A stretch of DNA of 39,383 nt, taken from assembly GCA_944372275.1 (NCBI GenBank), contig CALVYO010000001.1:1-39383 (forward strand), read 5' to 3'. This document shows, in pieces, positions 3,972-19,776 of the stretch. A program made the translations under genes and the position numbers. Below the pieces are notes generated by a model. The model saw only the letters and a list, made by a program, of their open reading frames with translations, did no database searches and was not told where the DNA came from. Origin of the DNA: an uncultured Bacilli bacterium (GTDB lineage Bacteria > Bacillota_I > Bacilli_A > RF39 > UBA660). The stretch's first letter is position 1, and the number at the start of each line of letters is the position of its first letter.

Positions 3972-5018
3972 CTATTCATATCCTTGTGTATCTTTAATAA
4001 AATTCAATGAAATATATATTTCAGCACCATCAGAATCTGTTTCCAAACTATCGATATCTTGTCCTTCAATCCAAACATAAACACGAGTTTTGGTAATACC
4101 GTCTGGAACTGTAAACAATGGTACTTCAAAATCTTCATCAGTCATCGTTTCTTGTAGTTCAAAATAATTTGGATCAAGATTTGGTGAACCTGATACTGTA
4201 TTAGCAACAAATATTGGTCCACCAGCCCTAGTAAATGCATAAGTTGGAAATTCTTGGCCATTTACTAAATTAACGCCATACTTTGTTGCTCTTTCAATTG
4301 ATAAATCTGAATGATCTTTGCTATTTGGCTCAAAAATAATCGAATAACAATTATTATTACAAGATATATTCTGAACTTCAGTAGCAGAAGCATCTTTAGC
4401 AACAGACCCCATTTTAACAATTCCAACTCGTGAAGAATTTAATAAACCGACCATTTCTTCATCAGGATTTTCTTCAATTGTAATTGAAGTTCCATAATCA
4501 AAATACAAATTATCACTAGTTGGTGATCCTGAATCATTTTTAAAAAACAAATCAAATGCTATATAGTTATTGTACTCATTTCTTCCACCTTCATGCATTA
4601 AATTAGTCCGTACATAACCATTTTCTTTATCTTTATTAGGATACCTAACACCGCTACTTGCAAACATATTAAATATTGGACTATCGTGATTAGTTATTCC
4701 ATTTGAAGAAATAGGAACTAAACCTCCACCAGCCCATTGACTAGTATTATTAGGATAAGTATATCTTAATCCTCTAATAAGTTCATCAGCTGATATAACT
4801 ATATCAGTATCAAAATTAATGCCATCTAATGAGATTGATAATCCCGTATTCTTTTTAACTGTCATTGTAAATGTTTTTACTCTAACATTTAAATTGGTTG
4901 AAAACCACGCATATGTTGAAAAAATAAGCAAAATACCTATTATTACCATAATAGTAATCGTTACTTTTTTGTTAGTTTTTTCAATTATTCTTTTTTTTAA
5001 AGTATTTTGTTTTTTCAT
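3972..5018 (-). CDS. secreted TasA/camelysin-like fibre-subunit paralog, class D (D1, 348 aa)
   Basis: Basic N-terminus, TM helix, then FSTYAWFSTN. Shares GLSISLDG, GGLVPISS, YIAFDLFFKNDSG, FEPNS, PTYAF and ITKTRVYVWIEGQDID blocks with the B and C proteins. RBS is GGTGGTGA. Confidence 0.8.
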   Translation of the reverse strand: MKKQNTLKKRIIEKTNKKVTITIMVIIGILLIFSTYAWFSTNLNVRVKTFTMTVKKNTGLSISLDGINFDTDIVISADELIRGLRYTYPNNTSQWAGGGLVPISSNGITNHDSPIFNMFASSGVRYPNKDKENGYVRTNLMHEGGRNEYNNYIAFDLFFKNDSGSPTSDNLYFDYGTSITIEENPDEEMVGLLNSSRVGIVKMGSVAKDASATEVQNISCNNNCYSIIFEPNSKDHSDLSIERATKYGVNLVNGQEFPTYAFTRAGGPIFVANTVSGSPNLDPNYFELQETMTDEDFEVPLFTVPDGITKTRVYVWIEGQDIDSLETDSDGAEIYISLNFIKDTQGYE

Positions 5019-5079
5019 TTTTCACCACCTAATTAATAAAGGAAGAGTAATTAACCAAATTACTCTTCTTTATTATCAA

Positions 5080-6402
5080 TTATTCACCATTTGTTGGAGT
5101 AATATCTGTACTTGGTCCATCATATCCTGGAATATCTGCTTCAGTATATCTTTCTTTAGTGAATCCAAAATTAACTGTAATTTTCTTTCCTAATGATGCA
5201 AAATCATAGTTATCTACATCTTGACCTTCAATCCAAATGTAAACTCTTACTTTTGTAATACTATTTGGCGCTAAAGTCATAAATTGTGGACGATCTTTAC
5301 CAGCTATATTTTTCATTGTATCAGTAAAGTATCCAATTCCAGCATCTTCATCATAAGTCATATCAACTAAATTATAAGTACTTCTATCATCATCATTATA
5401 ATAAGTTGTATAATCGATTGTTGATTTAGTATAACCATTGTATGCTGCGCCATCATAAATATTAATATTATCAGCAATAGCAATTTCATTACTTATTGCA
5501 TATGTTGGATATGCTTGATTTAATTCAACAGTAGCACAATGACTACCTGCATTATATGAAGCAGCATCATTAACATCATCACCATCTGCTTTTCTTGTTA
5601 AACAAGATTTATCATACCAATTAACAGCATTTTGCACATGCACAGAATCATTTGGTTCCCAAATTCTTGCTTCTCTACAAATACCGGTTACTTGAACTTG
5701 TCCATCAGCAGCAGGAACATCAGAACAAGTAATTTTTGTAATGTTACTTACAGATTCAGTATCTGCTTTAACACGACCAATTTGTGCGAATGCAACCCTT
5801 ACAGAATTTTCAATACCTGCTTTTTCTTCGCCATCAGCAGCAACAGTAACTGCAGAATTAGTAGTTAAATAAATTGCTTCTTCGTTTAATGGATTATTTT
5901 GAGTATAATATTCATTACCTGATAAGTTTTTAATGAATAAATCGAATGCAACATAGCCATTACCTTCAACATATTCAGCAGAACCACTACCAACTTGTGT
6001 AGTATGATTATCAACTTGACTAGCTAATAATCTATAACCACCTGTAACAGCAGTCAAACTTCCTTTTTCATATAATTTCATTCTTGAAGAATTTTTATCC
6101 ATATCACCTACAGATGACATTGGAATTAATCCTTCATCTTCGCCATCTAACCATTGGTTAGCATGTCCAGTATAAGCATCAGCATTTCTAGCATCTAAAG
6201 TATATTTCCATTTTTGACCATCCATTGATAGGTATAAGCCTTCAGTTGTTGCTATATTAACGCTAAATTCAGCTACATTAACAGTTTTCATACCTATAAA
6301 CCAAGCATAGGTTGAAACTGATAATAAGATAGCACATAAGCAACACATAGCAACTAAATTTCTAACTTTTTTGCTTTTTTTAGCATTATATTTTTTTGCC
6401 AT
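5080..6402 (-). CDS. secreted TasA/camelysin-like fibre-subunit paralog, class C (C1, 440 aa)
   Basis: N-terminus K-rich, TM, then SVSTYAWFIGMKTVNV. C-terminus reads ITKVRVYIWIEGQDVDNYDFASLGKKITVNFGFTKE. Four conserved Cys. RBS is AGGAGGAA. Closest paralog is C2. Confidence 0.85.
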   Translation of the reverse strand: MAKKYNAKKSKKVRNLVAMCCLCAILLSVSTYAWFIGMKTVNVAEFSVNIATTEGLYLSMDGQKWKYTLDARNADAYTGHANQWLDGEDEGLIPMSSVGDMDKNSSRMKLYEKGSLTAVTGGYRLLASQVDNHTTQVGSGSAEYVEGNGYVAFDLFIKNLSGNEYYTQNNPLNEEAIYLTTNSAVTVAADGEEKAGIENSVRVAFAQIGRVKADTESVSNITKITCSDVPAADGQVQVTGICREARIWEPNDSVHVQNAVNWYDKSCLTRKADGDDVNDAASYNAGSHCATVELNQAYPTYAISNEIAIADNINIYDGAAYNGYTKSTIDYTTYYNDDDRSTYNLVDMTYDEDAGIGYFTDTMKNIAGKDRPQFMTLAPNSITKVRVYIWIEGQDVDNYDFASLGKKITVNFGFTKERYTEADIPGYDGPSTDITPTNGE

Positions 6403-6428
6403 ATTTCCTCCTATATATAATTTTAGTA

Positions 6429-6459
6429 AACTAGAAGATTTTAATTAAATCTCCTAGTT
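6429..6459 (-). promoter_or_regulatory. intercistronic 12-bp hairpin between B1 and C1
   Basis: aactagaagatt (6429-6440) pairs with aatctcctagtt (6448-6459), giving one G-U on the minus-strand RNA. There is no U-tract on the coding (minus) strand. The B2-C2 junction has no equivalent. Confidence 0.45.
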
Positions 6460-6468
6460 ACTTATTTT

Positions 6469-7710
6469 TTATTCACCTGATGTTGGTCTCTTATCAACAT
6501 CTACTGGTAATTGTGGATCACCATCATATTCAATATCTTCACCATATAATTGTTCTTTAGTGAATCCGAATGAAACTGAGATTTGTCCTCCTAATGAAGC
6601 AAAATCATAGTTATCTACATCTTGACCTTCAATCCAAATATAAACTCTTACTTTTGTAATACTATTTGGTGCTAAATAGAATAATTCAGGTCTTTCAGTT
6701 CCTTTTAAATTTTTCATTGAATCTGTGAAAGTAGATACTTTCATTAATTTACCATCTTGTGCAGTAGTACTAACCGAAGTTGTCCAACTATTATATTCAG
6801 CGCCATCATATACATCTACTCCATCTGTATAATTAATTACACCACTTACTGCATATGTTGGAACGAATGTACCATCACTAACAGTACCACAAGTACCATT
6901 AAATGAAGCAGGATCTGTAATAGTTTGAGCAATTCTTTTTACACATGATGTAGTATACCAATTAATAGCATTTTGAACGTGTTTAGTATCGTTTGGTTCC
7001 CAAATTGTAGCATCACGATTAGCACAAATGGCAGATACACCATTACCACCAGTACAATCAATACCTTGAATTTTTGCAGTATTTTCTTCCGTAGCAATTA
7101 CACGACCAATTTGTGCGAAAGCAACTCTTACTGAATTTTCAATACCTGCAGTTTCTTCACCAGCAGCACCAGTTTTAACAGCTGATTGTGGAGTTAAATA
7201 AATTCCTTCTTCATTTAAAATATTAACTTCATCATAATATTCATTACCTGATAAGTTTTTAACAAATAAGTCAAATGCAACATAACCATCTTGTTCAGCA
7301 TCAGTATTTTCAACTTTACTTGCCATTACACGATAACCACCAGGTGAAGCAGTAAAGCTACCTTTTTCATATAAAATCAAATTTGATGAAGTAGTATCGA
7401 TTTTTCCAACTGATGACATTGGAATTAATCCATCACCACCCCAACTATTAGTATTTGTTAAATATGTTCCATCACCAGGAGTGTTATAATTATCTTCGTT
7501 AATTGTCACAGAATCACTGAAAGTCGTACCATCTAATGAAAGTGATAATCCATCGATAGCAGCAATTTTTACATCGAAAGCAGTAACATTAACAGTTTTC
7601 ATACCAATAAACCATGCATAGGTTGAAACTGATAAAATGATAGCACATAAACCAGTTCCAACAAGTAATCTTTTAACACGCTTTTCGTGTCTCTTATTTC
7701 TTTTTTCCAT
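6469..7710 (-). CDS. secreted TasA/camelysin-like fibre-subunit paralog, class B (B1, 413 aa)
   Basis: N-terminus MEKRNKRHEKRVKR, TM, then SVSTYAWFIGMKTVNV. C-terminus reads ITKVRVYIWIEGQDVDNYDFASLGGQISVSFGFTKE. Four conserved Cys. Confidence 0.85.
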   Translation of the reverse strand: MEKRNKRHEKRVKRLLVGTGLCAIILSVSTYAWFIGMKTVNVTAFDVKIAAIDGLSLSLDGTTFSDSVTINEDNYNTPGDGTYLTNTNSWGGDGLIPMSSVGKIDTTSSNLILYEKGSFTASPGGYRVMASKVENTDAEQDGYVAFDLFVKNLSGNEYYDEVNILNEEGIYLTPQSAVKTGAAGEETAGIENSVRVAFAQIGRVIATEENTAKIQGIDCTGGNGVSAICANRDATIWEPNDTKHVQNAINWYTTSCVKRIAQTITDPASFNGTCGTVSDGTFVPTYAVSGVINYTDGVDVYDGAEYNSWTTSVSTTAQDGKLMKVSTFTDSMKNLKGTERPELFYLAPNSITKVRVYIWIEGQDVDNYDFASLGGQISVSFGFTKEQLYGEDIEYDGDPQLPVDVDKRPTSGE

Positions 7711-7730
7711 ATGTACCTCTCTCTTTAAAA

Positions 7731-8429
7731 TTAATAATTTTCAACATACTCTGAATTAAAGTCCATATAAACAGAAAATTCACCACCTAAGATATCGTCT
7801 GTACATTCAGGATCACTACCTTCAACCCAAATGACAATTGTGTATTTATCGATATCTCCTGGTTTAAAATTATCAACCTTATTACGGGCAACTAAACTTT
7901 CTTCTAAAAATGCAGTCGTATCTGGCTCATTGGCTCCATTTTTAGCAGCTTTAGCATAAGTAATTTGGTCTCCATTACGATAAACTCTAATTCTAACAGC
8001 ATCGTCGATTTCTTTGATAACATCTGTGATAAAAAGTTCTCTCCAATAGCTAGTAATCTCATTTCCAATATTCTCAACAAAAAATGTGTAAGCAAGGTAT
8101 TCTGTACCGTTATGTGACCCCCCGTCACTTTCATTTAAATCATTAGGTAACCAATTACCAGATATATTTGTAAATGTCTTAGGTGAAGCGATTGATAATT
8201 CTGCTCGATACACTTTATAGTCTGGATCATCGTAAATGACAATACCTCTACTAAAGTATAAGTTTTTATCAAGTGTTATACTAAAATTACCACTATTATA
8301 AATAATACCTATAACCACATACAAAAGAATAAATAGGAAAAGGATTACTAATAAAGCTATTCGAAAGATTTTTTTGAGTTTTTTTTCAGTTTTGATTTTC
8401 TTTGAATTAAGCTTAATCTTGTTTTCCAT
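7731..8429 (-). CDS. membrane-anchored TasA-like protein, class A (A1, 232 aa), first gene of cassette 1
   Basis: K-rich N-terminus and a long TM (IFRIALLVILFLFILLYVVIGIIY), but no (S/T)-(Y/L)-(A/S) motif. C-terminus YTIVIWVEGSDPECTDDILGGEFSVYMDF resembles the B/C/D C-terminal strand motif. RBS is GAAGGGG. Confidence 0.8.
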   Translation of the reverse strand: MENKIKLNSKKIKTEKKLKKIFRIALLVILFLFILLYVVIGIIYNSGNFSITLDKNLYFSRGIVIYDDPDYKVYRAELSIASPKTFTNISGNWLPNDLNESDGGSHNGTEYLAYTFFVENIGNEITSYWRELFITDVIKEIDDAVRIRVYRNGDQITYAKAAKNGANEPDTTAFLEESLVARNKVDNFKPGDIDKYTIVIWVEGSDPECTDDILGGEFSVYMDFNSEYVENY

Positions 8430-8496
8430 AACTCATACCCCTTCATATTTAACCTATTTGATTAGGCTTCTATGATATTCTTTACAATATAACTAT

Positions 8497-8547
8497 ATTA
8501 TAGCATACTAATTTTTTTTGTCAATATAATATGTCGATAATTGTCGA
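8497..8547 (-). promoter_or_regulatory. near-consensus sigma-A promoter of cassette 1 plus two upstream TGTCGA direct repeats
   Basis: Minus strand reads TTGACA (8519-8524), 16 nt, TATAAT (8497-8502). In plus-strand reading, TGTCGA occurs at 8532-8537 and 8542-8547. These are 10 bp apart and 13 bp from the -35. The geometry is identical upstream of A2. Confidence 0.6.
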
Positions 8548-8639
8548 AATTAATTTTACTAGCTTTTTTATTATTTGACAATATATTTTTACAATGATTG
8601 ACACTATTTTATATAAAAATGTAAATATTTTACAATAAT

Positions 8640-8668: not shown

Positions 8669-8733
8669 TTATCTTGTTTTTTTACACATATATATGTATA
8701 ATAAAGGTGTAAAAGAAGAAAGAAGGGTTTTAA

Positions 8734-9345
8734 ATGAGAACAAAATTTAAAATTTTGATGGTAATTAGTTCTTTGGCTTTCACACTAAGTCTTATGAGTA
8801 ATACTTACTCAAGATATGTTGCTGATGTTGATGGCGATATTGAATTATTATTCGCAAAATGGCAAATACTTGTTAATGATAGTGATATCACTAATAACAC
8901 TACAACTTCTATTAATATAACTCCAGTTATGGAAGAAAATATTAATGTTGCTGATAATACCATTGCTCCTTCTTCTAAAGGTTATTTTGATATCGAAGTT
9001 GATCCATCTAATGTTGGTGTTTCTTTCAACTATAACATTACTTTAGATGTTGTTAATGAAAATCTACCTGATTTAATAATAAGTAAGTACGCTATATTAG
9101 ATAGTGATTATATCGAAGGTGATCAAATAACTACAACCACTATTTTAAATAATATTATAAATGGAACTGTTGATTATACTGATACCTTAGAACCATTTAA
9201 AATTAGAGTTTACTTTGAATGGTATGAAGGTGCTGATGAAGTTATGGATGATACAACTGATACTAACATTGGTTATGAAGCTACTTTAAATGATACTTCA
9301 TTATTAGTAAATGCAACAATAAGTTTCGAACAAAAAATTAATTAA
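8734..9345 (+). CDS. small secreted TasA/camelysin-like protein (203 aa)
   Basis: Signal peptide ends in MSNTYSRYVAD. Contains IAPSSKGYFDIEV, typical of the first strands of camelysin/TasA-type domains. C-terminus reads IRVYFEWYEGADEVMDDTTDTNIG...NATISFEQ. RBS is AAGAAGGG. Confidence 0.8.
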   Translation: MRTKFKILMVISSLAFTLSLMSNTYSRYVADVDGDIELLFAKWQILVNDSDITNNTTTSINITPVMEENINVADNTIAPSSKGYFDIEVDPSNVGVSFNYNITLDVVNENLPDLIISKYAILDSDYIEGDQITTTTILNNIINGTVDYTDTLEPFKIRVYFEWYEGADEVMDDTTDTNIGYEATLNDTSLLVNATISFEQKIN

Positions 9346-9368: not shown

Positions 9369-9389
9369 TATATAAAAAAAATAGTATCA

Positions 9390-10226
9390 TTAACTATTCT
9401 TTTCATTAAAATATAAATTTTTAATTCTATCTAAAGCATCTTTAATATATTGACAACTAATCTTATATTGTTCAAAAACAATTTCAAATCCATTTTCATC
9501 ATCACATACAAAATTCCAATAATCTTTACCAATCAATAATTCTTCATCACAAAAAAATTGTTGTACTCTTTCTTGTTTCCAAATTTTATCTTCACCATAT
9601 TTATTGTATGCTGTAGCAAAAAATATATTTATTTTATCGTCTGATTCCAATAATTTATTTTTTAACAAAAAATATTCTTGTAATAATTCACTTTTTTCTG
9701 CCTTAGCCTTTTTATTATCTAAATCACCACCTGATTTTAATTCTATTACATAATGTTCCTTAGTTGAAGGGTTATAAAAATAATTATCTGTTTCGTGAGT
9801 TTTCATATAACTTTCTAAATTTTTAGGTTGGACACAATAAAAGTTGTTATAATCTTCTACACTAGGTTTAACATGTTTATCATATTCAGTAAGCAAATAA
9901 TCAATGTGTTGAGTCTGCTGAGGTAATAAATATGATTCTATTTTTCCCCTTACTTCATAAGATAAATTAGCAATAGAATTTCCTATATTTTCCAACACTT
10001 TACCAAAACTAGAATCAAATGATCTAACAAAGGCTGAATAAAACATAAATTCTTTACCTAATTCAGCAATAAAAACATTATTTTTTTTAGAATTAATAAC
10101 ACCGTCCGGATTATTAACCTCAGAAGCATATCTAAGTTCGAAGCCTTCAGCAAAATTTTTTATTCCTAAATCAACTATCTGTTTTATTGCAGTAATTTTA
10201 TGCTCTTTTAATAATTCTTCGGTCAT
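9390..10226 (-). CDS. candidate type II restriction endonuclease (278 aa)
   Basis: Starts 3 nt after the methyltransferase stop, with RBS AAGGAGG. Contains a PD-(D/E)xK-like arrangement (..THETDNYFY..EHYVIELKSGGD). Specificity unknown. Confidence 0.55.
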   Translation of the reverse strand: MTEELLKEHKITAIKQIVDLGIKNFAEGFELRYASEVNNPDGVINSKKNNVFIAELGKEFMFYSAFVRSFDSSFGKVLENIGNSIANLSYEVRGKIESYLLPQQTQHIDYLLTEYDKHVKPSVEDYNNFYCVQPKNLESYMKTHETDNYFYNPSTKEHYVIELKSGGDLDNKKAKAEKSELLQEYFLLKNKLLESDDKINIFFATAYNKYGEDKIWKQERVQQFFCDEELLIGKDYWNFVCDDENGFEIVFEQYKISCQYIKDALDRIKNLYFNEKNS

Positions 10227-10228
10227 TT

Positions 10229-11362
10229 CTAATCCTCCTTGTAGTTAGTAATTATTAAATGTTCAACATTTTTATTATTTCTATTTTGAAAACTTACCAA
10301 ATATTTTTTGTCAAATGATGATATATAAAATCCAGCATCTTTATATAAATTATAAATAAATTCTGTATTTTTAATTATTAACATAAATTTTGCTTTTGTT
10401 TTTTTTAAATAATTAAACAACCTTATTTGATCATTTTTATTAAAATCATTTTGTGCATAAGTTGAAAATTCAGTATCATAAGGTGGATCTAAAAACATAA
10501 AATCTTCTTTTGTTAAATTTATTTTATTACAAAATTCTTCAAAATCTAAATTGTATATTTCAGTTTTTTTCATATAATTTTTTATTTTTTCAGATGAAAT
10601 ATAATCTATTTTCTTTTTAAAATCTTTCTTATTATAACTTATGCCACCATAAGGAACATTAAATTTTCCTTGTTTATTATACCTAAACATTGATGCATAA
10701 CAATACTCTCTAATAAAATAAAAAATGGCTGATGAAAATTCTTTATCAATATCTAATTCATTTCTATAATTATACAAATATCTAAAGTGCATATAAAATG
10801 CACTTTTTAATGCTGATTCTAAATTATCTAATATATTTTTTTCAGTAAGTTTTCCTTTTTCTTTTTCAATTTTATTCATTCGACAAATTTTAGAATAAAA
10901 ATTTTTTTGGATTTCGTGAATAAAATTGTCAATTCTTATATTAAAACTTTCAGTTAATACACCATTAAATTCACTTGAATGTTGAATAACAAAATCACAA
11001 ATTTTATCATTATATTTAATTTTTTTTATTTTATCGATAGATGTTTCTTTACAAAATTTTTTATATAAGTTTAGTAATTCTTTTGCATTATTATCTATAA
11101 TTTTTTCAAGTAACATCCAATTATGATATAGTTCATTTAATTTATTAATAAATTTTTTATTATTATCTTTTATATATTTATATAAATTTATTAATTCGTC
11201 AGACTTATCATTTATAATTGAATTATTACAATTTAATGCAAAGTATACTGCCCCACCGCCAACAAAAGGTTCAACATATCTTGTAAAATTTTTCGGAATA
11301 TTTTCTAAAATAACAGATAATTCTTTTTCTTTGCCACCAGCCCATTTAATAAATGATTTCAT
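10229..11362 (-). CDS. Dam-class (alpha-group) N6-adenine DNA methyltransferase
   Basis: FIKWAGGKEKE and EPFVGGGAVYF (AdoMet motif I region) lie near the N-terminus, and FLDPPYD (motif IV) near the C-terminus. The start is trimmed to the ATG at 11362 (MKSFIKWAGGK) behind GAGGTG. The ORF-track start at 11404 has no RBS. Confidence 0.85.
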   Translation of the reverse strand: MKSFIKWAGGKEKELSVILENIPKNFTRYVEPFVGGGAVYFALNCNNSIINDKSDELINLYKYIKDNNKKFINKLNELYHNWMLLEKIIDNNAKELLNLYKKFCKETSIDKIKKIKYNDKICDFVIQHSSEFNGVLTESFNIRIDNFIHEIQKNFYSKICRMNKIEKEKGKLTEKNILDNLESALKSAFYMHFRYLYNYRNELDIDKEFSSAIFYFIREYCYASMFRYNKQGKFNVPYGGISYNKKDFKKKIDYISSEKIKNYMKKTEIYNLDFEEFCNKINLTKEDFMFLDPPYDTEFSTYAQNDFNKNDQIRLFNYLKKTKAKFMLIIKNTEFIYNLYKDAGFYISSFDKKYLVSFQNRNNKNVEHLIITNYKED

Positions 11363-11394
11363 TTTAAACACCTCATTTTTTGTGTTACATAAAT

Positions 11395-11423
11395 ATACTA
11401 TCATACAAACATATGTATGTCAA
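11395..11423 (-). promoter_or_regulatory. promoter of the R-M operon
   Basis: Minus strand reads TTGACA (11418-11423), 17 nt, TAGTAT (11395-11400). Confidence 0.5.
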
Positions 11424-11432
11424 TAAAAATTG

Positions 11433-11457
11433 ATAAAAATGTGCATCTAAACACATT
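11433..11457 (-). terminator. intrinsic terminator after the SipW-like pseudo-peptidase gene
   Basis: Minus strand reads AATGTG-8 nt-CACATT followed by TTTTT, directly after the stop at 11458-11460. Confidence 0.5.
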
Positions 11458-11997
11458 TTATTCTTCAACATCAACTTCATCGCCATATTTAATTTCAACG
11501 ATTAATGCATATAATTCATATATAAATATTAAGAAACAAGGTACTAATACGATGAATAAAAATCCCCATTGTGATTCTATTATATTTAATACTGTTCCGA
11601 TATCATTATATACTTTAGTAGGACGACCAATTAAATATTTTAATGAATATGGATCACCATTTTCTAGAGTAATTACTTGATTATCAACATTAACTTCTCC
11701 TACTTTACCAATGTTGATGTCAGCTGTTTTAGACATTTGATCTACTTTATAAACAAACACTGTTTCGCCTACTTGCAAATTTTCTGGTGCCGCTTCTTCA
11801 ACTAATACTAAATCACCCTTTTGAAAATCCTCATGGCTTACTTTATCTTTTAAAATTACTAATGAAGTTTCACCAAATACGGTTACACGATAGTCATTAA
11901 AGTTTAATAATAAAACTGTCATAACTAAAGCGAAAGAAAAATAAATTACTCCAAATGTTACGATTAATACTTTTTTTATTGTTTTTAATGCTTTCAT
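11458..11997 (-). CDS. SipW-family paralog lacking the catalytic Ser and His boxes (pseudo-signal-peptidase, ~179 aa)
   Basis: Same architecture as SipW: N-terminal TM, beta-rich ectodomain, C-terminal TM (FLFIVLVPCFLIFIYELYALIV). Where SipW has SGSMEP this protein has VILKDKVSHED. Where SipW has THR(I/V) it has VFVYKV. The QKGDLVLV and ENGD blocks are retained. I prefer the start at 11997 (GGAGGT RBS); 12015 is the alternative. Confidence 0.65.
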   Translation of the reverse strand: MKALKTIKKVLIVTFGVIYFSFALVMTVLLLNFNDYRVTVFGETSLVILKDKVSHEDFQKGDLVLVEEAAPENLQVGETVFVYKVDQMSKTADINIGKVGEVNVDNQVITLENGDPYSLKYLIGRPTKVYNDIGTVLNIIESQWGFLFIVLVPCFLIFIYELYALIVEIKYGDEVDVEE

Positions 11998-12005
11998 AAT
12001 ACCTC

Positions 12006-12854
12006 CTAATTGCATTCTATTTCTAATAAAGAAAATTCATTTACATCATAAGTTGCTGATTTATCTACTTTATAAAATATGTAACTTAAATTATCTTTAC
12101 TAGGAATTTCTAAAATTATTTCATTAATATAACCATTTTGCATATTATAATTGGTTATATTATCTTTATCGATTCTTAATTTGTTAGCATCCCAATTAAT
12201 TTTTACACATTTTTTATCATCGGATGAATTTGTTATTGTTAGTCTATCATAATTATTAAAACTTTGATAAGTCATATCTGTTTTTTCAACTAATGTTTTA
12301 TCTTTTTTTAAAATAAATGTTCCGGTTAAAGTCTTTTCATATGGCTCAATACTTACTACTTCGATATCTGCAGTTACATTATCAGTTGCTATATCAAAAT
12401 AGATATCAGCAGTAGATTTTTGAATTACCCAATTATATCCCTTTGATTCGCAAGTTGCTTTATCAAAATCTGTCGTATCTACGCCATCATTTTTATTATT
12501 AATACAAGTATTATAACTTGATAATGTCCCATAATAAGTATTAGAATCAGTACCATTTATTTTGCAATCAGTACCATCTGATAATGTACAAGTAACTTTA
12601 TATTTTATGTCATAGTCTGTTATAGCTGCCTCATTTATTGAATTTGTTAAATTGAAATGAACGCTCGTTCCATCCCAAACATTATTGACATTTTTAACAT
12701 TATCACCTAGTTTATCACTACTTAAATAAAATCCTTGAGAATTTAAGTAGTAGTTCCATACTGAATTAGAAATGTACTTTGCTAAAGTTAAACCATTGGT
12801 TATTAATAATACTACAGTTAAAAGAACTACACCTATAATTAAATATTTTCGCAT
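12006..12854 (-). CDS. secreted protein with SipW-type signal (282 aa), Cys-rich
   Basis: Signal MRKYLIIGVVLLTVVLLITNGLTLAKYISN. Its ATG abuts the stop of the upstream gene (TAAATG) behind AGGTGA. Asn/Thr-rich mature part. Confidence 0.75.
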   Translation of the reverse strand: MRKYLIIGVVLLTVVLLITNGLTLAKYISNSVWNYYLNSQGFYLSSDKLGDNVKNVNNVWDGTSVHFNLTNSINEAAITDYDIKYKVTCTLSDGTDCKINGTDSNTYYGTLSSYNTCINNKNDGVDTTDFDKATCESKGYNWVIQKSTADIYFDIATDNVTADIEVVSIEPYEKTLTGTFILKKDKTLVEKTDMTYQSFNNYDRLTITNSSDDKKCVKINWDANKLRIDKDNITNYNMQNGYINEIILEIPSKDNLSYIFYKVDKSATYDVNEFSLLEIECN

Positions 12855-13391
12855 TTAATCACCTAACTTCTGCCAACTATTAATTTCTACATCGATAAAA
12901 TCAGCTAAATTTGTATATTCTAAAGAATTATATTCACTTGGAAATGTCAATTTTATTTTATAATTATCTAATATTTCTGTATTATGACTTAGTGTCTGAA
13001 CACTTGAATTACATACCAATTCATCAAATTCGTTTCGCGAATAAGTTTCATCACAATTCATTATTAATTCTTCTGATTCGCCTTCTTTATATAATTCAAT
13101 AGTTAAAGGCATAAAATGATATGTTTTTATAGTTATTTGATATTCAACTGTTACATTACTTAATTTTTCTTCTTTATTTGTAACAGAAAACATATATTCT
13201 TCGACACTTCCTGGATTTAAATTATTTAAGTTTAATTCTAAATGATCTAATTGTTTACTTTCGAAAACAAATTTAGCTATTTTTTGATCGACATTAATAT
13301 TACTATCGGAATAGAAGATAGAATATGTAACGCCAGTACCTAAAAATATTGCTATTAAAATGAATAGAATTATCAATACTTTATGTTTCAT
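12855..13391 (-). CDS. small secreted TasA/camelysin-like protein (178 aa)
   Basis: Signal ends in GTGVTYSIFYSD. LNPGSVEEYMFSVTN matches the l.PG....f.v.N strand typical of camelysin/TasA domains. Ends in EINSWQ. RBS is AGGAGGAG. Confidence 0.8.
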   Translation of the reverse strand: MKHKVLIILFILIAIFLGTGVTYSIFYSDSNINVDQKIAKFVFESKQLDHLELNLNNLNPGSVEEYMFSVTNKEEKLSNVTVEYQITIKTYHFMPLTIELYKEGESEELIMNCDETYSRNEFDELVCNSSVQTLSHNTEILDNYKIKLTFPSEYNSLEYTNLADFIDVEINSWQKLGD

Positions 13392-13400
13392 TTTCTCCTC

Positions 13401-16400
13401 CTATCTTACGATAAATTTCTTTTCTATTGTTCCTATTTTTGTAGTTCCATCATATAGTTCGAAAACAAATTTATAGCCACCTTGCATATTAATTAAATCT
13501 AATTGTTGTGGCAAAGTGTAATAATTATCAGTAATCTTATTTAATGATGTTGTTGTATAATTACCTAAATCAATCAATGTATAATCTTGATTATAAGCAG
13601 TTAATTGTTGTTTTTTATATAATGATACTCGAATATATGGATCAGTAAATGTTCCTGTTTTAGTTATATCAAAATTAACAATATCATCAGTAATTACATT
13701 ATTAAAATCTACATTAAAACCATAATCAGTAGTAATATTATTAGTAACAATTACTGGGATTGTAATTTCATTACTATATTCATTACCATACATTCCATCA
13801 TATGAGGATATAGCCTTAATTTTAATATAATATGTCCCGGATAATAACTTGCTATTATCAATTGATGTTGTTATTTCGATATTACCAATATCATTAATTC
13901 GAACTATACCATCATTATTTGGTGAATATTCTTTATTATTAACTTTAAAAGTTAGATTTTTTAAATATTCTTTAGCAACTATATTATCATTACTATCGAC
14001 TAATTTAATATTTAAACCAATTATCTTTTCAGCATAAGTTGTATCGATGATATCTTGACCATTAATCATTCCATAATTGATATTATGAGCAATATCGATT
14101 ATATTTGTTGAATCACTGTTATAAATTATTGAATTACTATAATTAGAACTAATCGTAATATTAGTTTCGCTATCGTATATATTAAATAATTTTTCAGTTT
14201 GTTTTAATGTTTTTATTATACCATCTTGATTATTTAACTCCATTGTAATATTTATATCTTCTAATGTTTCAACCGTATTAAATTCGATCATTAATGTGAA
14301 GTTTTCATTAATTTGACCAGTATAATTATTTTCATCAAATAAATTAGTTGAACCAACTTCACTAAATGAAGTTAATGGATAAGTTGTTATTAAAGTATCG
14401 ATGATATAAGTATAAACTTTATTTTTATTATTATCGATTAAAGTTAATTTAGTATTAAGTGGTAAAGCAATATTAGTTATAATACTATGTGTTTTTAAAT
14501 CATTATATTGATAATTAGAATTATAACTTAATTCTAATATCATTTTAGAATTGTTAGTTATATTATTGCTTGTAGTTATTTGATTAATTTGATAGCCTTC
14601 ATATATTATATATTCACTATTAACATAAGTTACATAATCGGCGTTATCGACTACTTTAGCATATAAAATATATGTTCCTTGATTATTTATTGTTACTTTA
14701 TCACTATAAGTATTCCAACTAACATTATTTAATTGTTCTTCAGTTAATACTTCTTGCGCTAAATGATATTCGATACTTTTTATACCAGATAAATTATCAG
14801 TAGCCGTTATCGTTATATCTTTACTTTCATTTATGTAATTTTTAATAATTGGTGTGGTTAAACTTTGCCAAGATTTATCATCCATACTAATAACCACATC
14901 TGAACCAGATAAATCTAAAATAATTAAATCTGTATTTAAATAATAAATATTATCGTTATTATCTACTACTTTAGCATATATAACATATTTTCCCTCATCT
15001 TTAATTTCGACGATATTTTCATAAGGGATCCAAGTTAAATTATTTATCTCAGCATTACTTAAAACTTTATCACTTATGTAATAACTTACTTCTTTAAAAG
15101 GTCTTAAAGCATCAACTTGTTCGATACTAAAAACCGTACTACTATTTAATTTAATTGTGTTTAATTCATAACCTAAATTATCCCAAGTATAAGATCCTAA
15201 ATGAATATTAGCGATTGGACTTGCAATATCATCAATAGCTAAAATCGGATAACTTCCTTCTTCATAAATCCAAATATTATCTTCATTATTAAGTAAATCA
15301 TCGTTATCGATAAATTCATTAAATTGTAAATTAGTTAAAACATAATCTTTAGTTTTTAAATTATTTATATCAGTTAAAATAGGACCAGTAACTAATCCTT
15401 CATTAACGATATTTCCTGAAGTATAATAAACATTTTCGATATTTAAGGTTTCATTTACATTATTAAATAAATATGTCGTATCAGTAGCAAAAGAATTTTT
15501 TAAATTAATTGTTCCATTTATATCATTTATTAAATAATCAGTAGTTCCAACACTATAACTTTTATCGATATTAGATGTACCATTTATACTTGTTACTAAG
15601 CCTGTTGTTGTATCTCCAGTAAGTGTTCCATTATTATAGGCTCTGTTAATATTGATATTATTTGTATAACCTAATAAACCACTACTTATTTTTCCATAAA
15701 TTGAACCTTTATTAATAACATTAGTAATAATCGTATCGTTTGCATTGGCAACAATACCACTAGTTATATTTGGATTATAAGTAACTTCATAAGTTAAATT
15801 AGAAATTAAAGTATTAGTATCAATAGTTATTTTATTTACTTTTCCTAAATCTAAACTAAATTCACCAGTAACTTCACTTTCATTAATTAAAATTGTATCT
15901 GTTATATTACCTTTAACAATTACATTAGTAATATTTCCTGCTATATAAGGAATAGCAATTTCGGTTAAACTACTTACTTCAGGAATGTCATAACTTTCTG
16001 TTTTAGTAGTTAATTCATTATTACTTACTACATAACCGTTATATAAAATATTAGTTAAAGATGCGTTAGTACTATCAGTAGCAATACCAGCAGTAACATT
16101 TCCACCATAAATCATCGCATTTTCAACATATAAATTACTTACATTACCACTTAAATTAGTAAACAAACCTACTTCTTCATTTTGATTAGTAATATATAAT
16201 CCATATATACGATATGAATTACCATTTAAATAACCTTTAAAATTATCTAAAGATTCAAATAGATTAATTGTTTTAATTTTAGTACCTGTATAATCTTTAT
16301 TATCATATACTTCATTAGTATATTCTTTTATGTAAAAAATCGTATTATTTATTTTATATTTAATTCCTTCTTCATCATAACTAAATATACCATCATTTAA

Positions 16401-16691
16401 AACAATATCATTATTTAATTCGAAATATGTATCTTGATAATCTTCAGTTTTAAGCATACTAGCAAAATAAGCAAGTTCATTACCATTTGAAATTATATAT
16501 GGATCAGTACTTGTTCCTGTTCCCTTTCGATAACTAGTAGCCACATTACCATCCCATACTTCAATTTCATTAATTGATGTTCTATTTTGATAGCGGGCCA
16601 AACTAGGTATCATAATTGATAAAATTAATATAAATACTAAAATCAAAATTAAATAATTTTGTTTAGGTATTTTATTTAATATACTCTTCAT
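13401..16691 (-). CDS. 1096-aa secreted beta-helix (GLUG-like) and Ig-like-repeat surface protein with SipW-type signal
   Basis: TM/signal ends in IPSLARYQNR. Then GTGTSTDPYIISNGNELAYFASML and VGLFTNLSGNVSNLYVEN-type repeats follow, suggesting a right-handed beta-helix or GLUG-type region. Two tandem ~90-aa repeats follow (..NNLTWIPYENIVEIKDEGKYVIYAKVVDNNDN.. and ..NNVSWNTYSDKVTINNQGTYILYAKVVDNADY..). No LPXTG or other wall-anchor motif. Confidence 0.8.
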   Translation of the reverse strand: MKSILNKIPKQNYLILILVFILILSIMIPSLARYQNRTSINEIEVWDGNVATSYRKGTGTSTDPYIISNGNELAYFASMLKTEDYQDTYFELNNDIVLNDGIFSYDEEGIKYKINNTIFYIKEYTNEVYDNKDYTGTKIKTINLFESLDNFKGYLNGNSYRIYGLYITNQNEEVGLFTNLSGNVSNLYVENAMIYGGNVTAGIATDSTNASLTNILYNGYVVSNNELTTKTESYDIPEVSSLTEIAIPYIAGNITNVIVKGNITDTILINESEVTGEFSLDLGKVNKITIDTNTLISNLTYEVTYNPNITSGIVANANDTIITNVINKGSIYGKISSGLLGYTNNININRAYNNGTLTGDTTTGLVTSINGTSNIDKSYSVGTTDYLINDINGTINLKNSFATDTTYLFNNVNETLNIENVYYTSGNIVNEGLVTGPILTDINNLKTKDYVLTNLQFNEFIDNDDLLNNEDNIWIYEEGSYPILAIDDIASPIANIHLGSYTWDNLGYELNTIKLNSSTVFSIEQVDALRPFKEVSYYISDKVLSNAEINNLTWIPYENIVEIKDEGKYVIYAKVVDNNDNIYYLNTDLIILDLSGSDVVISMDDKSWQSLTTPIIKNYINESKDITITATDNLSGIKSIEYHLAQEVLTEEQLNNVSWNTYSDKVTINNQGTYILYAKVVDNADYVTYVNSEYIIYEGYQINQITTSNNITNNSKMILELSYNSNYQYNDLKTHSIITNIALPLNTKLTLIDNNKNKVYTYIIDTLITTYPLTSFSEVGSTNLFDENNYTGQINENFTLMIEFNTVETLEDINITMELNNQDGIIKTLKQTEKLFNIYDSETNITISSNYSNSIIYNSDSTNIIDIAHNINYGMINGQDIIDTTYAEKIIGLNIKLVDSNDNIVAKEYLKNLTFKVNNKEYSPNNDGIVRINDIGNIEITTSIDNSKLLSGTYYIKIKAISSYDGMYGNEYSNEITIPVIVTNNITTDYGFNVDFNNVITDDIVNFDITKTGTFTDPYIRVSLYKKQQLTAYNQDYTLIDLGNYTTTSLNKITDNYYTLPQQLDLINMQGGYKFVFELYDGTTKIGTIEKKFIVR

Positions 16692-16742
16692 AAATATCTT
16701 CCTTTACCACTTATTATTCTTTAACTTCTCTACCTTATATCA

Positions 16743-16761
16743 ATTATAACATAAATCGACA
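16743..16761 (-). promoter_or_regulatory. extended -10 promoter of the 1096-aa gene with an ATGTCGA box
   Basis: Minus strand reads ATGTCGATTTATGTTATAAT, which is TGnTATAAT with TGTCGA 7 nt upstream of the -10. RBS AAAGGAAG precedes the ATG at 16691. Confidence 0.45.
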
Positions 16762-16789
16762 TCTTTTGCACTATATTTACTAATTATTT

Positions 16790-16819
16790 AAAAAAAAGAT
16801 TAGAGTTTGCTCTCTAATC
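16790..16819 (-). terminator. intrinsic terminator-like hairpin
   Basis: GATTAGAG (16798-16805) pairs with CTCTAATC (16812-16819). On the minus strand it is followed by T8 (plus-strand A-run 16790-16797). Confidence 0.5.
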
Positions 16820-16821
16820 CT

Positions 16822-16894
16822 CTTTTTAATTTGCCATTTATAGAGCTGGCTTCACTCACTTTTTTAATTGCCATTTAAGGCTGGCTTCACCTGC
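16822..16894. repeat. two tandem ~35-38 bp direct repeats plus a third truncated start
   Basis: TTTTTAATTTGCCATTTATAGAGCTGGCTTCAC(tcac) then TTTTTAAT-TGCCATTTA-AGGCTGGCTTCAC(ctgc). TTTTTTAATGC then restarts at 16895 and runs into the perfect palindrome AATGCTACT-T-AGTAGCATT (16901-16919). Confidence 0.6.
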
Positions 16895-17003
16895 TTTTTT
16901 AATGCTACTTAGTAGCATTATTATTATATGCTAAAAAGCATAATATAATCGCTTACGCAATAATAATATATCACAATAAAAATAAAATGTCTATATTTTA
17001 TCG

Positions 17004-17032
17004 AAAAAAATATCACACAATTTGTGTGATAT
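17004..17032 (-). terminator. strong intrinsic terminator after C2
   Basis: Minus strand reads ATATCACACA-aatt-TGTGTGATAT followed by TTTTTTT, 5 nt after the C2 stop. Confidence 0.8.
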
Positions 17033-17036
17033 TAAA

Positions 17037-18368
17037 TTATTCATTTGTTGTTGGAACATCTGGTCCATCATAATCTGGGAAGTCAGATTGATTATATCTT
17101 TCCTTAGTGAATCCAAAGTTAATTGTAATTTTCTGTCCTAATGATGCGAAATCATAGTTATCGATATCTTGTCCTTCAATCCAAATATATACTCTTAATT
17201 TAGTAATACTGTTTGGAGCTAAAGTCATAAATTGTGGACGATCTTTACCAGCAACATTTTTCATTGTATCAGTAAAGTATCCAGTTCTTGTTGTTGCATC
17301 ATAAGTCATATCGATTAATTTCATATCAGCTTTTCCGCCTACTCCAGCAGAAGCAGCATTATATTCTACTAATGTTTTAGTATTAGCAGCATATTTATTA
17401 TAAGCTAAACCATCATAAACATTTACGTTATCAGCAATAACAATTTCACGACTAATTGCATATGTTGGATATGCAGTAGTTGTATTTAATGTAGCACAAG
17501 ATGTACCTTCTGAATAAGAACCTGCAGCATTAACATCTGCGCCTGTTCTTTCTAAACAAGATTCTTTATACCAATTTAAAGCATTTTGAACGTGTTTAGT
17601 ATCATTTGGTTCCCAAATAGCAGCATTACGGCAAATACCTGTAACGTGTTGTGGATTATTAACATCATCTTCACTATCAGCACAAGTCATACTTGTAACT
17701 AAATCTTGAATATCTTCATCATCAGTATCTAAAGCTGCACTAACGCGTCCTAATTGTACAAATCCAACTCTTACTGAGTTTTCAATACCAGCATTACCTT
17801 CACCATCTAAGGCAACAGTAACTGCTGAATTAGTATTTAAGTAAATTGCTTCTTCGTTTAAAACATTATCTTCTGGATAATATGCTTCACCAGATAAGTT
17901 TTTAACGAATAAGTCGAATGCTATATAACCATTACCTTCTTCGTATTCGATACCACCAGCATTTTGTGTAACGTTATTGTCAACACGACTTGCTAATAAT
18001 CTATAACCACCTGTAACAGCAGTTAAACTTCCTTTTTCATATAATTTCATTCTTGAAGATGCTTCATCCATCTCACCAATTGAAGACATTGGAATTAATC
18101 CTTCATTTGTTCCATCTAACCATTGGTTAGCATGGTTTGTATAAGCTGGTGTATTTTTAGCATCTAGAGTGTAACGCCAATCAGCTCCATCCATTGATAA
18201 ATATAACCCTTCAGTAGTAGCAATATTAATATCAAATTCAGTAACATTAACAGTTTTCATACCTATAAACCAAGCATAGGTTGAAACTGATAATAAAATA
18301 GCACATAAAGCACAAATTGAAACTAGATTTTTAATTTTTTTACTTTTCTTTAATTTTCTATTTTTCAT
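17037..18368 (-). CDS. secreted TasA/camelysin-like fibre-subunit paralog, class C (C2, 443 aa)
   Basis: SVSTYAWFIGMKTVNV, then ITKLRVYIWIEGQDIDNYDFASLGQKITINFGFTKE. Collinear with C1 along its full length. RBS is AGGAGGT. Confidence 0.85.
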   Translation of the reverse strand: MKNRKLKKSKKIKNLVSICALCAILLSVSTYAWFIGMKTVNVTEFDINIATTEGLYLSMDGADWRYTLDAKNTPAYTNHANQWLDGTNEGLIPMSSIGEMDEASSRMKLYEKGSLTAVTGGYRLLASRVDNNVTQNAGGIEYEEGNGYIAFDLFVKNLSGEAYYPEDNVLNEEAIYLNTNSAVTVALDGEGNAGIENSVRVGFVQLGRVSAALDTDDEDIQDLVTSMTCADSEDDVNNPQHVTGICRNAAIWEPNDTKHVQNALNWYKESCLERTGADVNAAGSYSEGTSCATLNTTTAYPTYAISREIVIADNVNVYDGLAYNKYAANTKTLVEYNAASAGVGGKADMKLIDMTYDATTRTGYFTDTMKNVAGKDRPQFMTLAPNSITKLRVYIWIEGQDIDNYDFASLGQKITINFGFTKERYNQSDFPDYDGPDVPTTNE

Positions 18369-18378
18369 CTTTTACCTC

Positions 18379-19776
18379 CTAATTAATTGTCCATATATCA
18401 TCTACTCGCGTAGCTGTTTTTTTAACTCCACCATCTTCGAATGTAAATTTCGTCATCCAATTTGGTAAAGTAAATAATTTATTGTCATTATCATAAGTAA
18501 TTTTTGAATTTGAAATGTTGGTTATTTCACCCGTATTGATATAAGATACTGTTTGGTCTCTTACGACATCATCTGGTAATTCTGGATCACCATCATAATC
18601 AATATCTTCCCCATAGAATCTTTCTTTAGTAAAGCCGAATGATACAGATATTTTTCTGCCTAAAGATGCAAAATCATAATTATCAACATCTTGTCCTTCT
18701 AAGTAAATATAAATTCTTACTTTAGTAATACTATTAGGAGCAAGTGTTATAAATTCTGGTCTATCGACACCTTCATTCATTTTATCGGTATCAGTGAAGT
18801 AATCTACTTTATATAGTTTACCTGCTTTATATGTTGTCGATATCGATTTAGTATAACCATTATATTCTTTTCCATCATACACATCGACATTATCATCATA
18901 ATCGATAACACCACTTACTGCATATGTTGGATAGTAAACACCATCTTTAATGGTATTGCAAGTTCCTTTAAAAGAATTAGGATTGGTTATATCATCACCG
19001 ATTCTTTTACGACATGAAGTAGTATACCAACTAATAGCGTTGGTAACGTGTTTAGTATCGTTTGGTTCCCATATTGTAGCATCACGATCAGCACATATTC
19101 CTGTAACATTGCTATTAGATTTACAAGTAATGCCTGTAATTACACTAATATCATCTTCAACTGCAACTACTCGGCCAATTTGGGCGAATGCTACTCTTAC
19201 AGAATTTTCGATACCTGCTTTTATTTCTCCCCCATCTTCTGCGGCTTTTACCTCGGAAGCAGGATCCAAATAAATAGCTTCCTCATTTTTTTTGTTAAGT
19301 TCTGGATAATAAGCAATTCCAGATTTATTTTTAATAAATAAGTCGAATACTACATATCCATCAACTTCTTTAGCACCGGTGTTTTCTACTCTAGCAGCCA
19401 TTACACGATAACCACCAGGTGATGCTGTAAAACTTCCTTTTTCATACATAATAAGTCTTGATGAGCCAGTATCAATCTTACCAACTGATGAAACAGGAAC
19501 TAATCCTTTGCCACCCCAACTGTTAGTGTTTCCTTTATAACTTGCAGTTTTATAATTGTCTTCATTAATCGTTACGGTCGTTTCCCAATTTTCACCATCT
19601 AACGATAGTAATAAAGTATCAATCGCTGCAATATGAACATCAAAACTAGAAACATTAACAACCTTCATACCAATGAACCAAGCATAAGTAGAAACTATTA
19701 GGATTATCGTACATAAAACAGCAGCAACAAGTAATTTTTTTACTTTTGTTTCATGTTTCTTTTTTCTTCTTTTCAT
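18379..19776 (-). CDS. secreted TasA/camelysin-like fibre-subunit paralog, class B (B2, 465 aa), with extra C-terminal ~50 aa
   Basis: IVSTYAWFIGMKVVNV, then ITKVRIYIYLEGQDVDNYDFASLGRKISVSFGFTKE. A tail follows (..SYINTGEITNISNSKITYDNDNKLFTLPNWMTKFTFEDGGVKKTATRVDDIWTIN) that B1 lacks. Confidence 0.85.
   Translation of the reverse strand: MKRRKKKHETKVKKLLVAAVLCTIILIVSTYAWFIGMKVVNVSSFDVHIAAIDTLLLSLDGENWETTVTINEDNYKTASYKGNTNSWGGKGLVPVSSVGKIDTGSSRLIMYEKGSFTASPGGYRVMAARVENTGAKEVDGYVVFDLFIKNKSGIAYYPELNKKNEEAIYLDPASEVKAAEDGGEIKAGIENSVRVAFAQIGRVVAVEDDISVITGITCKSNSNVTGICADRDATIWEPNDTKHVTNAISWYTTSCRKRIGDDITNPNSFKGTCNTIKDGVYYPTYAVSGVIDYDDNVDVYDGKEYNGYTKSISTTYKAGKLYKVDYFTDTDKMNEGVDRPEFITLAPNSITKVRIYIYLEGQDVDNYDFASLGRKISVSFGFTKERFYGEDIDYDGDPELPDDVVRDQTVSYINTGEITNISNSKITYDNDNKLFTLPNWMTKFTFEDGGVKKTATRVDDIWTIN

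Follow-up and report, generated by a model that had tools for sequence, protein, structure and literature searches.

A junction motif in two flavours and three SipW-family genes in a large operon of uncultured gut Bacilli

A stretch of 39,383 nucleotides from an uncultured Bacilli bacterium (GenBank contig CALVYO010000001.1, positions 1 to 39,383; the whole stretch is called the window below) carries a long gene array in which nine proteins have a single hydrophobic helix that ends in a similar short motif, together with genes related to SipW, the signal peptidase of the endoplasmic reticulum (ER)/archaeal type. The locus raises the question of whether this motif marks the place at which the operon's own peptidases would release the proteins, and why it comes in two flavours. 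The answer that we favour, with a probability of roughly 0.65, is that the motif corresponds to the c-region of a SipW-dependent signal peptide of the TasA/camelysin class together with the first mature residues, that SipW-family peptidases cut it while the housekeeping signal peptidases are kept off, and that the released proteins contribute to one fibre or coat. Two further proposals, that different peptidases read the two flavours and that the new N-termini join the subunits, are tentative and are treated separately.

A shared junction that closes a single hydrophobic helix

The first flavour is found in five large proteins, B1, B2, C1, C2 and D1, in the contexts LLIFSTYAWFSTN (D1), LLSVSTYAWFIGM (C1 and C2), ILSVSTYAWFIGM (B1) and ILIVSTYAWFIGM (B2), and the second in proteins of 203, 282, 1096 and 178 amino acids (aa), which read LMSNTYSRYVAD, NGLTLAKYISN, IPSLARYQNR and GVTYSIFYSD, respectively. 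An initial annotation of the window, made from the letters alone, had quoted these strings as a junction motif shared by nine proteins, and every one of them is found as written. It had also placed the motif at the C-terminal end of the only hydrophobic helix, and indeed each of the nine has one N-terminal hydrophobic stretch, closed by the motif. With positions counted outward from the predicted cut (shown by an arrow), the small residues proposed at -1 and -3 are present as P1 and P3 in all nine proteins and in the logos of their homologues. An aromatic residue does follow the cut, but the range of one to three positions given for it was too loose: it stands at exactly P2' in 9/9. The whole signal is laid out as a basic n-region, 18-22 uncharged residues ending in a small or polar c-region (for example S-V-S-T-Y-A, G-T-G-V-T-Y-S or I-P-S-L-A), and the motif. 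The nine genes are as follows.

3972..5018, minus strand: D1, 348 aa, candidate flavour-1 substrate; junction STYA↓WF at 4902-4919, predicted cut after residue 37
5080..6402, minus strand: C1, 440 aa, candidate flavour-1 substrate; junction at 6298-6315, predicted cut after residue 33
6469..7710, minus strand: B1, 413 aa, candidate flavour-1 substrate; junction at 7609-7626, predicted cut after residue 32
8734..9345, plus strand: 203-aa protein, candidate flavour-2 substrate; junction NTYS↓RY at 8800-8817
12006..12854, minus strand: 282-aa protein, candidate flavour-2 substrate; junction LTLA↓KY at 12774-12791
12855..13391, minus strand: 178-aa protein, candidate flavour-2 substrate; junction VTYS↓IF at 13314-13331
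13401..16691, minus strand: 1096-aa protein, candidate flavour-2 substrate; junction PSLA↓RY at 16590-16607
17037..18368, minus strand: C2, 443 aa, candidate flavour-1 substrate; junction at 18267-18284
18379..19776, minus strand: B2, 465 aa, candidate flavour-1 substrate; junction at 19675-19692

The motif is concentrated in this operon. As contig C1 (elsewhere in the text C1 is the protein), the window belongs to a metagenome-assembled genome of 1.23 Mb (about 24% G+C, 73% complete). When this assembly is translated in all six frames, [ST]TYAWF turns up five times, always in the window. The looser pattern [ST][YFLW][AS]x[FYW] at a helix end was sought in the 173 open reading frames of at least 120 aa whose only hydrophobic stretch is N-terminal; 11 carry it, eight of them in the window and one on contig C65, which continues the operon. 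The 203-aa protein is left out of this count by the hydrophobicity cut-off alone. Genome-wide, the operon accounts for 9-10 of the 11-12 single-helix proteins that bear the motif. The C65 protein, of 403 aa, is a tenth substrate candidate, its signal ending SITLA↓WF in the manner of flavour 1. The five flavour-1 proteins of the window are paralogues (33-70% identical) and therefore count as one family and not as five independent events, so that about five separate families show the motif: B/C/D, the related 178/282 pair, and one each for the 403-, 203- and 1096-aa proteins.

Outside the operon, tandem paralogues of 149 and 142 aa on contig C9 (12565-13458) have a sole N-terminal helix ending GTLS-YYKAF and GSLA-YSKGF, a superficial fit to the junction rule. 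They lie far from the operon, beside genes for small hydrophobic proteins, and may be pilin-like and unrelated, or additional substrates of SipW.

Conservation was assessed in 73 translated loci from species-representative genomes, with distinct N-termini counted. The sequence logo of homologues that the initial annotation had called for shows both flavours strongly conserved:

B/C/D family, 207 N-termini: P3 T in 189, P2 Y in 200, P1 A in 205, P1' W in 207, P2' F in 199
203-aa family, 13 N-termini: T-Y-S↓R/K-Y in 13
178-aa family, 38 N-termini: T-Y-S↓x-F/Y in 37
282-aa family, 34 N-termini: [ST]-[YLF]-A↓K/R-Y, with Y at P2' in 33
1096-aa family, 44 N-termini: P-[ST]-[LF]-[AS]↓[RK]-[YF], with an aromatic P2' in 37

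Both flavours obey a single rule: P3 and P1 are small, P2 is bulky, and an aromatic residue stands at exactly P2'. What separates them is P1', an invariant Trp in flavour 1 as opposed to Lys or Arg in flavour 2 (with the 178-aa family variable here), and also the n-region, which is longer in flavour 1 and has a median net charge of +7 in B, C and D against +3 to +4 in the four flavour-2 families. A chance origin of flavour 2 was considered and rejected, the motif being conserved in each of the four families.

The B/C/D family itself is large. A word-based search with C1 returned 2632 proteins, and a profile of the five paralogues matched 1750 clusters (50% identity) of a representative library at E<=0.001; no Pfam domain or source name appeared in either set of results. 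Nearly all full-length B/C/D representatives have [S/A/G/E]-T-Y-A-W-F. A distant subfamily of about 330 aa (STYAWFTAN...) accounts for 1939 proteins in a word-based search with a 329-aa member, and searches with this member and with D1 returned only unnamed or 'hypothetical' proteins. In a sample of 150 high-quality genomes from the bacterium's order, 41 have members, in 31 of 86 genera, and the related contigs come from uncultured Bacilli, Mollicutes or Tenericutes of human, chicken, rabbit and ruminant guts.

Through the distant subfamily, four clusters of a Clostridia type (L082, L084, L085 and L086) were reached, and the division into two flavours drawn from the window proved to hold from the Bacilli to the Clostridia versions of the cluster. 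Their flavour-1 junctions are STYA↓WF, AYA↓WF and SFA↓WF, and their flavour-2 junctions TYA↓KY, IYA↓KY, TFS↓KY, TLS↓KY, TYS↓RY, IMA↓RY and VFG↓RY. L084 also encodes two proteins of the camelysin/TasA family PF12389 (36-39 bits) with the canonical junction GSYA↓YF, a direct link between this type of cluster and the TasA world. The genes for these two proteins, at 6935-7276 (113 aa) and 11190-12680 (496 aa), are nearly identical over their first 110 residues, and the longer one sits where the gene for a 534-aa-like protein is otherwise found.

Proposed cleavage by SipW-family peptidases and its alternatives

In TasA, a point of reference for these junctions, the cut in GGGTWA↓AFND falls between A27 and A28, and mature residues 28-38 serve as the donor strand of the fibre (PMC9674648). 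All nine proteins carry a TasA-type site at the close of an n-h-c signal, with P3 and P1 small, P2 bulky or aromatic, and P2' aromatic. As in Bacillus subtilis tapA-sipW-tasA (PDB 5OF1/5OF2, 8AUR), a dedicated ER/archaeal-type peptidase is encoded with its putative substrates, major and minor ones, and the predicted cut follows T-aromatic-A with an aromatic P2'. The two systems differ in that the TasA operon has one peptidase and the present one three paralogues (two predicted active, one dead), with ten candidate substrates in two signal flavours; in that B/C/D have no sequence or fold match to TasA; in P1', which is Ala in TasA and an invariant Trp or Lys/Arg here; and in the additional McrB-like ATPase, DUF2357 and EAL-like components. 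Camelysin/CalY (PF12389, Peptidase_M73; TIGR04088) follows the same junction logic, G-[ST]-[FY]-A↓Y-F-[ST], but the poly-Gly that precedes its motif and the 'SD' that follows are for the most part missing from the window proteins. The sipW-bsaA-bsaB-bsaC operon of Clostridium perfringens (TIGR04090) is likewise SipW-dependent, with several substrates and a large accessory protein. Donor-strand assembly has been proposed for BsaA, which, unlike the proteins described here, is TasA-like and isopeptide-locked and has one SipW in its operon; no window protein matches the BsaA family, and the camelysin-like protein of L084 scores 27.7 bits against a cut-off of 60.

The residues around the cut also bear on which class of peptidase could act there. 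An aromatic P2' is absent from 143 verified substrates of LepB and impairs cleavage by LepB, and the P2 Trp and P2' Phe of TasA, which is processed by the ER-type SipW, have been blamed for its incompatibility with LepB (PMC10269814). The genome has two housekeeping signal peptidases I of the P type, on contigs C100 and C4, and these might cleave at a classical site, with SipW needed for a subset of the proteins or for none. The presence of the two genes is in keeping with this, as are the small P3 and P1, which also fit the classical rule. It is opposed by the aromatic P2' in 9/9 proteins and in nearly all of their homologues, and by the bulky P2, which resembles the TasA Trp, and we consider processing by the housekeeping enzymes very improbable.

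The cluster's own peptidases are the candidates that we favour. The initial annotation had counted two SipW-family genes, one of them dead; the dead paralogue stands, but there are three genes in all, two of them intact, and the third (SipW182) lies on contig C65. Those in the window are:

75..2117, minus strand: SipW680, an ER/archaeal-type signal peptidase N-domain with a cytoplasmic extension of about 500 aa; peptidase orthogroup 1
11458..12015, minus strand: 185-aa SipW-like putative pseudo-peptidase; always after the 1096-178-282 genes

On TIGR02228 (signal peptidase I, archaeal/ER type; cut-off 51.85 bits), the N-domain of SipW680 scores 72.3 bits and SipW182 scores 88.1 bits. In SipW680 the Ser and His are present and are conserved in homologues; they are conserved in SipW182 too, which aligns to human SEC11A/C. 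The 185-aa paralogue falls under the cut-off with 21.8 bits. In its homologues the position of the catalytic Ser is I, V, F, L, T or M in 35/35 distinct sequences, the last conserved Asp is Asn in 35/35 and the His is mostly lost, and the other blocks are kept; judged by its sequence, it is a conserved pseudo-peptidase and not a decaying gene. The three orthogroups, all of them kept in L082, L084 and L086, each span Bacilli and Clostridia, with pairwise scores of 108-126, 129-217 and 86-90 bits within groups and 15-60 bits between them.

The large extension of SipW680 is a separate matter. Its counterparts in Clostridia are short (169-284 aa; L082 1560-2069 and L086 1139-1990), and in L082 the conserved block of the SipW680 tail was recognised by eye in a following protein of 328 aa (3586-4572); L086 has a 327-aa protein at the equivalent position (3552-4532). 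Since the Clostridia proteins are short and the tail block is on a separate gene in L082, the fusion in the window appears to be lineage-specific.

Several observations weigh against our reading or parts of it. TIGR04088 (cognate_SipW; a hidden Markov model of 34 positions, cut-off 19 bits) has no match in the genome at E<=10 (seven candidates scored) and none among the 60-aa N-termini; the model is insensitive, a PF12389-positive protein of L084 scoring only 9.4 bits. None of the nine proteins matches PF12389 (gathering score 22.5 bits) at E<=0.1, and none matches the TasA models. The AlphaFold2 (AF2) model of C1 finds no Foldseek match in the PDB (best E 0.21, template-modelling (TM) score 0.14, with the signal helix in the query), and its helix runs straight through STYAWFIGM (H3-38), as it would in an uncleaved anchor. 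Aromatic residues at helix ends are typical of membrane-interface belts. In B and C a second pair of small residues lies three residues upstream (S-V-S↓T-Y) and also has an aromatic P2'; we prefer T-Y-A↓W-F because of its exact alignment with TasA. In the 178-aa family the first 12 mature residues are less conserved than the rest (0.46 vs 0.62), and the pairing of each peptidase with a flavour is drawn from gene adjacency alone. To these can be added that scans against Pfam and NCBIfam, run on every cluster protein and on isolated 60-aa N-termini, returned nothing for A-D or for the 203-, 282- and 178-aa proteins.

Some of these points would be expected if the helices were uncleaved signal anchors of type II membrane proteins, the motifs being aromatic/basic interface belts that place the ectodomain, and if SipW served other substrates. 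The continuous AF2 helix and the missing TIGR04088 match are compatible with this, and Trp, Tyr and Phe at helix ends with Lys or Arg just outside are common in anchors. The cluster does encode proteins that look like anchors, and they look different:

7731..8429, minus strand: A1, 232 aa, class A, without junction motif
19792..20484, minus strand: A2, 230 aa, second class-A protein, without junction motif

Both class-A proteins have an uncharged span of 30 residues, and on account of this span and the missing motif they are probably uncleaved, permanent membrane anchors. Set against those 30 residues, the uncharged span of the motif-bearing proteins is 18-22 residues long, with a polar, small-residue c-region. 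Small residues at exactly P3 and P1 in five unrelated families, three dedicated SipW-family genes conserved in the operon, and the canonical GSYA↓YF of PF12389 proteins from the same type of cluster also argue against anchors for the nine, which we regard as unlikely.

Other signal types were considered and rejected. A class III (prepilin) signal would show G↓F-x-x-x-E before the helix, which the N-termini do not have, and no prepilin peptidase is seen among the open reading frames of the operon and its relatives; the N-termini also have no lipobox L-x-x-C of lipoproteins, and the pattern of C-terminal sorting signals is not present.

The course of events that we infer would begin with insertion of the preproteins by Sec. 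The operon's own ER/archaeal-type peptidases would then cut after [ST]-[Y/F/L]-[A/S], at STYA↓WF, TYS↓RY, TLA↓KY, SLA↓RY and TYS↓IF, and the invariant aromatic P2' and bulky P2 would keep the two housekeeping P-type peptidases off. Once released, the proteins would go into a single extracellular fibre or surface structure, made by uncultured Bacilli and Clostridia of the gut. The motif, its place and conservation, the linkage of the genes and the family and catalytic residues of the peptidases are observations; cleavage, its exact position, sorting and the donor strand are interpretation.

Two flavours, two intact peptidases and the predicted new N-termini

In the arrangement proposed here, flavour 1 (A↓WF with a long n-region of about +7) would mark the large B/C/D subunits and the 403-aa protein, and flavour 2 ([A/S]↓[K/R]-Y/F, its n-region short and about +3) the adhesin-like 1096-aa protein together with three small TasA-like proteins (203, 178 and 282 aa). 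It is conceivable, and we put it no more strongly, that the two are handled by different active orthogroups (A↓WF by the SipW182 type, [KR]Y by the SipW680 type) and that the pseudo-peptidase is a partner without catalytic activity. A SipW182-type gene directly precedes a gene for an A↓WF protein like the 403-aa one in L082, L084 and L086, and the SipW680-type gene lies among flavour-2 genes in L082 and L086. Such a division of labour is suggested by the two active orthogroups, the conserved pseudo-peptidase, the two flavours, and a difference in the n-region that is irrelevant after cleavage; the third peptidase and the recurrence of the trio and of both flavours in Clostridia make it more plausible.

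Alternatively, one active SipW, or both redundantly, might cleave all of the proteins, and the flavours might reflect what the N-terminus does after cleavage, such as setting joining order or register or distinguishing major from minor subunits; the second active SipW and the pseudo-peptidase would then have regulatory or scaffolding roles. This competes with sorting and leaves the core of our reading as it is. There is precedent in B. subtilis, where a single SipW cleaves both TasA and TapA, and P3, P1 and P2' are common to both flavours; moreover, the large cytoplasmic domain of SipW680 is suggestive of regulation, and conservation of the first 12 mature residues exceeds that of the rest in the B/C/D and 282-aa families. 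It sits less well with the retention of two active orthogroups from Bacilli to Clostridia, with the conserved adjacency of each active peptidase to one flavour, and with the n-region difference, since that region is removed with the signal peptide and has no action in the mature protein. We treat a shared peptidase as possible to about the same degree as sorting.

Whether the conserved new N-terminus takes part in joining subunits, as the donor strand of TasA does, can be put forward only speculatively, by analogy. The support is mixed and consists of the TasA analogy itself, the invariant Trp, conservation over 12 residues and lower model confidence after the cut. Conservation of the first 12 mature residues compared with the rest is 0.76 vs 0.63 in B/C/D, 0.73 vs 0.51 in the 282-aa family and 0.69 vs 0.68 in the 203-aa family. 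The C1 model (predicted local distance difference test, pLDDT, 90.6; predicted TM score, pTM, 0.88) has lower confidence at residues 31-50, and in the AF2 model of the 178-aa protein (pLDDT 80.4) residues 26-35, just after the predicted cut, are disordered.

Among the candidate substrates, the 178-aa model is a beta-sandwich with generic fold matches. It aligns over its full length with the archaeal bundling pilin AbpA/AbpB (7UEG; TMq 0.41, E 0.013, signal helix in the query), a weak match that is not significant; 7UEG has a jelly-roll subunit whose N-terminal donor strand follows signal removal, and it differs in using a generic signal peptidase and an AMA↓TL site. The 178-aa profile matches the TasA chains 5OF1 and 8AUR only weakly (E 0.5) and the camelysin-like protein of L084 with an hhalign probability of 76% (E 2e-5), across the signal and an L..L.PGD...F.V.N strand. 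The 178- and 282-aa families are homologous (hhalign 96.7%), and the 178- and 203-aa families possibly so (58%); the small flavour-2 proteins look remotely TasA/camelysin-like. B/C/D are not demonstrably TasA-like, since the C1 model has no PDB match and none in BFVD either (best E across the two 0.13-0.21), and on the evidence of the model they may have an undescribed fold. The B/C/D profile produced only a chance match to PDB sequences (Bacillolysin, E 0.04). Class A and B/C/D share only a C-terminal module, ..IWxEGxDxxxxD..GG.., and the 1096-aa protein is a candidate tip or adhesin protein.

Put together, these suggestions would amount to a three-member SipW module, two intact orthogroups and an obligatory pseudo-peptidase, that reads two signal codes and leads to ordered release of novel-fold major and TasA-like minor subunits, joined via their new N-termini in an undescribed, ATPase-associated surface fibre. 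We offer this fuller picture as a working proposal that is less likely than not to hold.

Gene order, neighbours and significance

The array runs along the minus strand as A2, B2, C2, 1096-aa, 178-aa, 282-aa, 185-aa SipW-like, a restriction-modification (R-M) pair, A1, B1, C1, D1, a cytoplasmic 534-aa protein and SipW680, and the 203-aa gene is on the opposite strand. The window extends only 74 bases past SipW680, into the start of one more gene:

3..71, minus strand: first 23 codons of a membrane-anchored McrB-like ATPase, the rest of which is on contig C65

Contig C65 of the same genome carries the operon on, its end overlapping the start of the window (tblastn and end-to-end sequence overlap), with genes for the 509-aa McrB-like ATPase, a 374-aa DUF2357 protein, the intact 182-aa SipW182 and the 403-aa protein. 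The usual order in relatives is A-B-C-D-534-1096-178-282-pseudoSipW-SipW680-McrB-like ATPase-DUF2357-SipW184-403, with the 203-aa gene divergent and upstream of A. The window departs from it by a second A-B-C cassette, a rearrangement and the inserted R-M pair. The Clostridia-type clusters hold the pseudo-SipW, an unfused SipW680-type protein, the ATPase, DUF2357, a SipW182-type protein, class A and a B/C/D-like protein, and L082 has in addition a separate EAL-like protein, a 534-like protein and a giant protein.

The R-M pair (9390-11404, minus strand), between the pseudo-SipW and 203-aa genes, is of type II: a D12-class N6-adenine methyltransferase (PF02086, 130 bits) with a TdeIII-family endonuclease (PF09520, 153 bits). 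Because the two flanking genes are adjacent in the closest relatives (L001, L003, L004 and L015), the pair looks, from gene order, like a recent insertion into the putative fibre cluster.

The McrB-like AAA+ ATPase (C65 6021-7550 with window 3-71) matches the PADLOC candidate PDC-M26A (E 2.5e-36), and the DUF2357 protein (C65 4881-6005) matches PF09823 with 44.6 bits. The two form a pair typical of McrBC-like restriction/defence modules, and it is kept between two signal-peptidase genes in the Bacilli and Clostridia versions alike. The idea that the whole cluster is a defence system was rejected: PDC-M26A matches the ATPase and 0/5 other operon proteins scanned, and the secreted-protein content argues against it. 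Just upstream of the A2-B2-C2 cassette, a divergent gene (20638-21228, plus strand) encodes a homologue of staphylococcal nuclease (PF00565; 196 aa) that has a signal at its N-terminus and a hydrophobic C-terminal tail.

A few model operons, in which a single peptidase goes with two or three TasA-like substrates, are the known cases of SipW-dependent secretion; the same cleavage logic is seen here in a much larger and wholly unannotated system. In the literature on the junction motif and on SipW with pili, we found no paper on the B/C/D family. As far as sequence comparison goes, what is new comprises the position-specific junction rule, the occurrence of both flavours in Bacilli and Clostridia, the n-region difference, the third peptidase, the tenth substrate candidate and the three orthogroups, and C1, from a family of over 1700 sequence clusters, has a fold that is possibly undescribed. 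The refined motif, [ST]-Φ-[AS]↓x-[FY] with W or K/R at P1', offers a means of annotating substrates, and it predicts neo-N-terminal peptides to be sought in gut metaproteomes, for example WFIGMK and (K)YISNSVWNYYLNSQGFYLSSDK. Two flavours alongside two active peptidases and a dead one also make dedicated sorting by bacterial signal peptidases directly testable. If the reading is true, a three-member SipW fibre system would be present in roughly a quarter of the species of a gut order and in many Clostridia.

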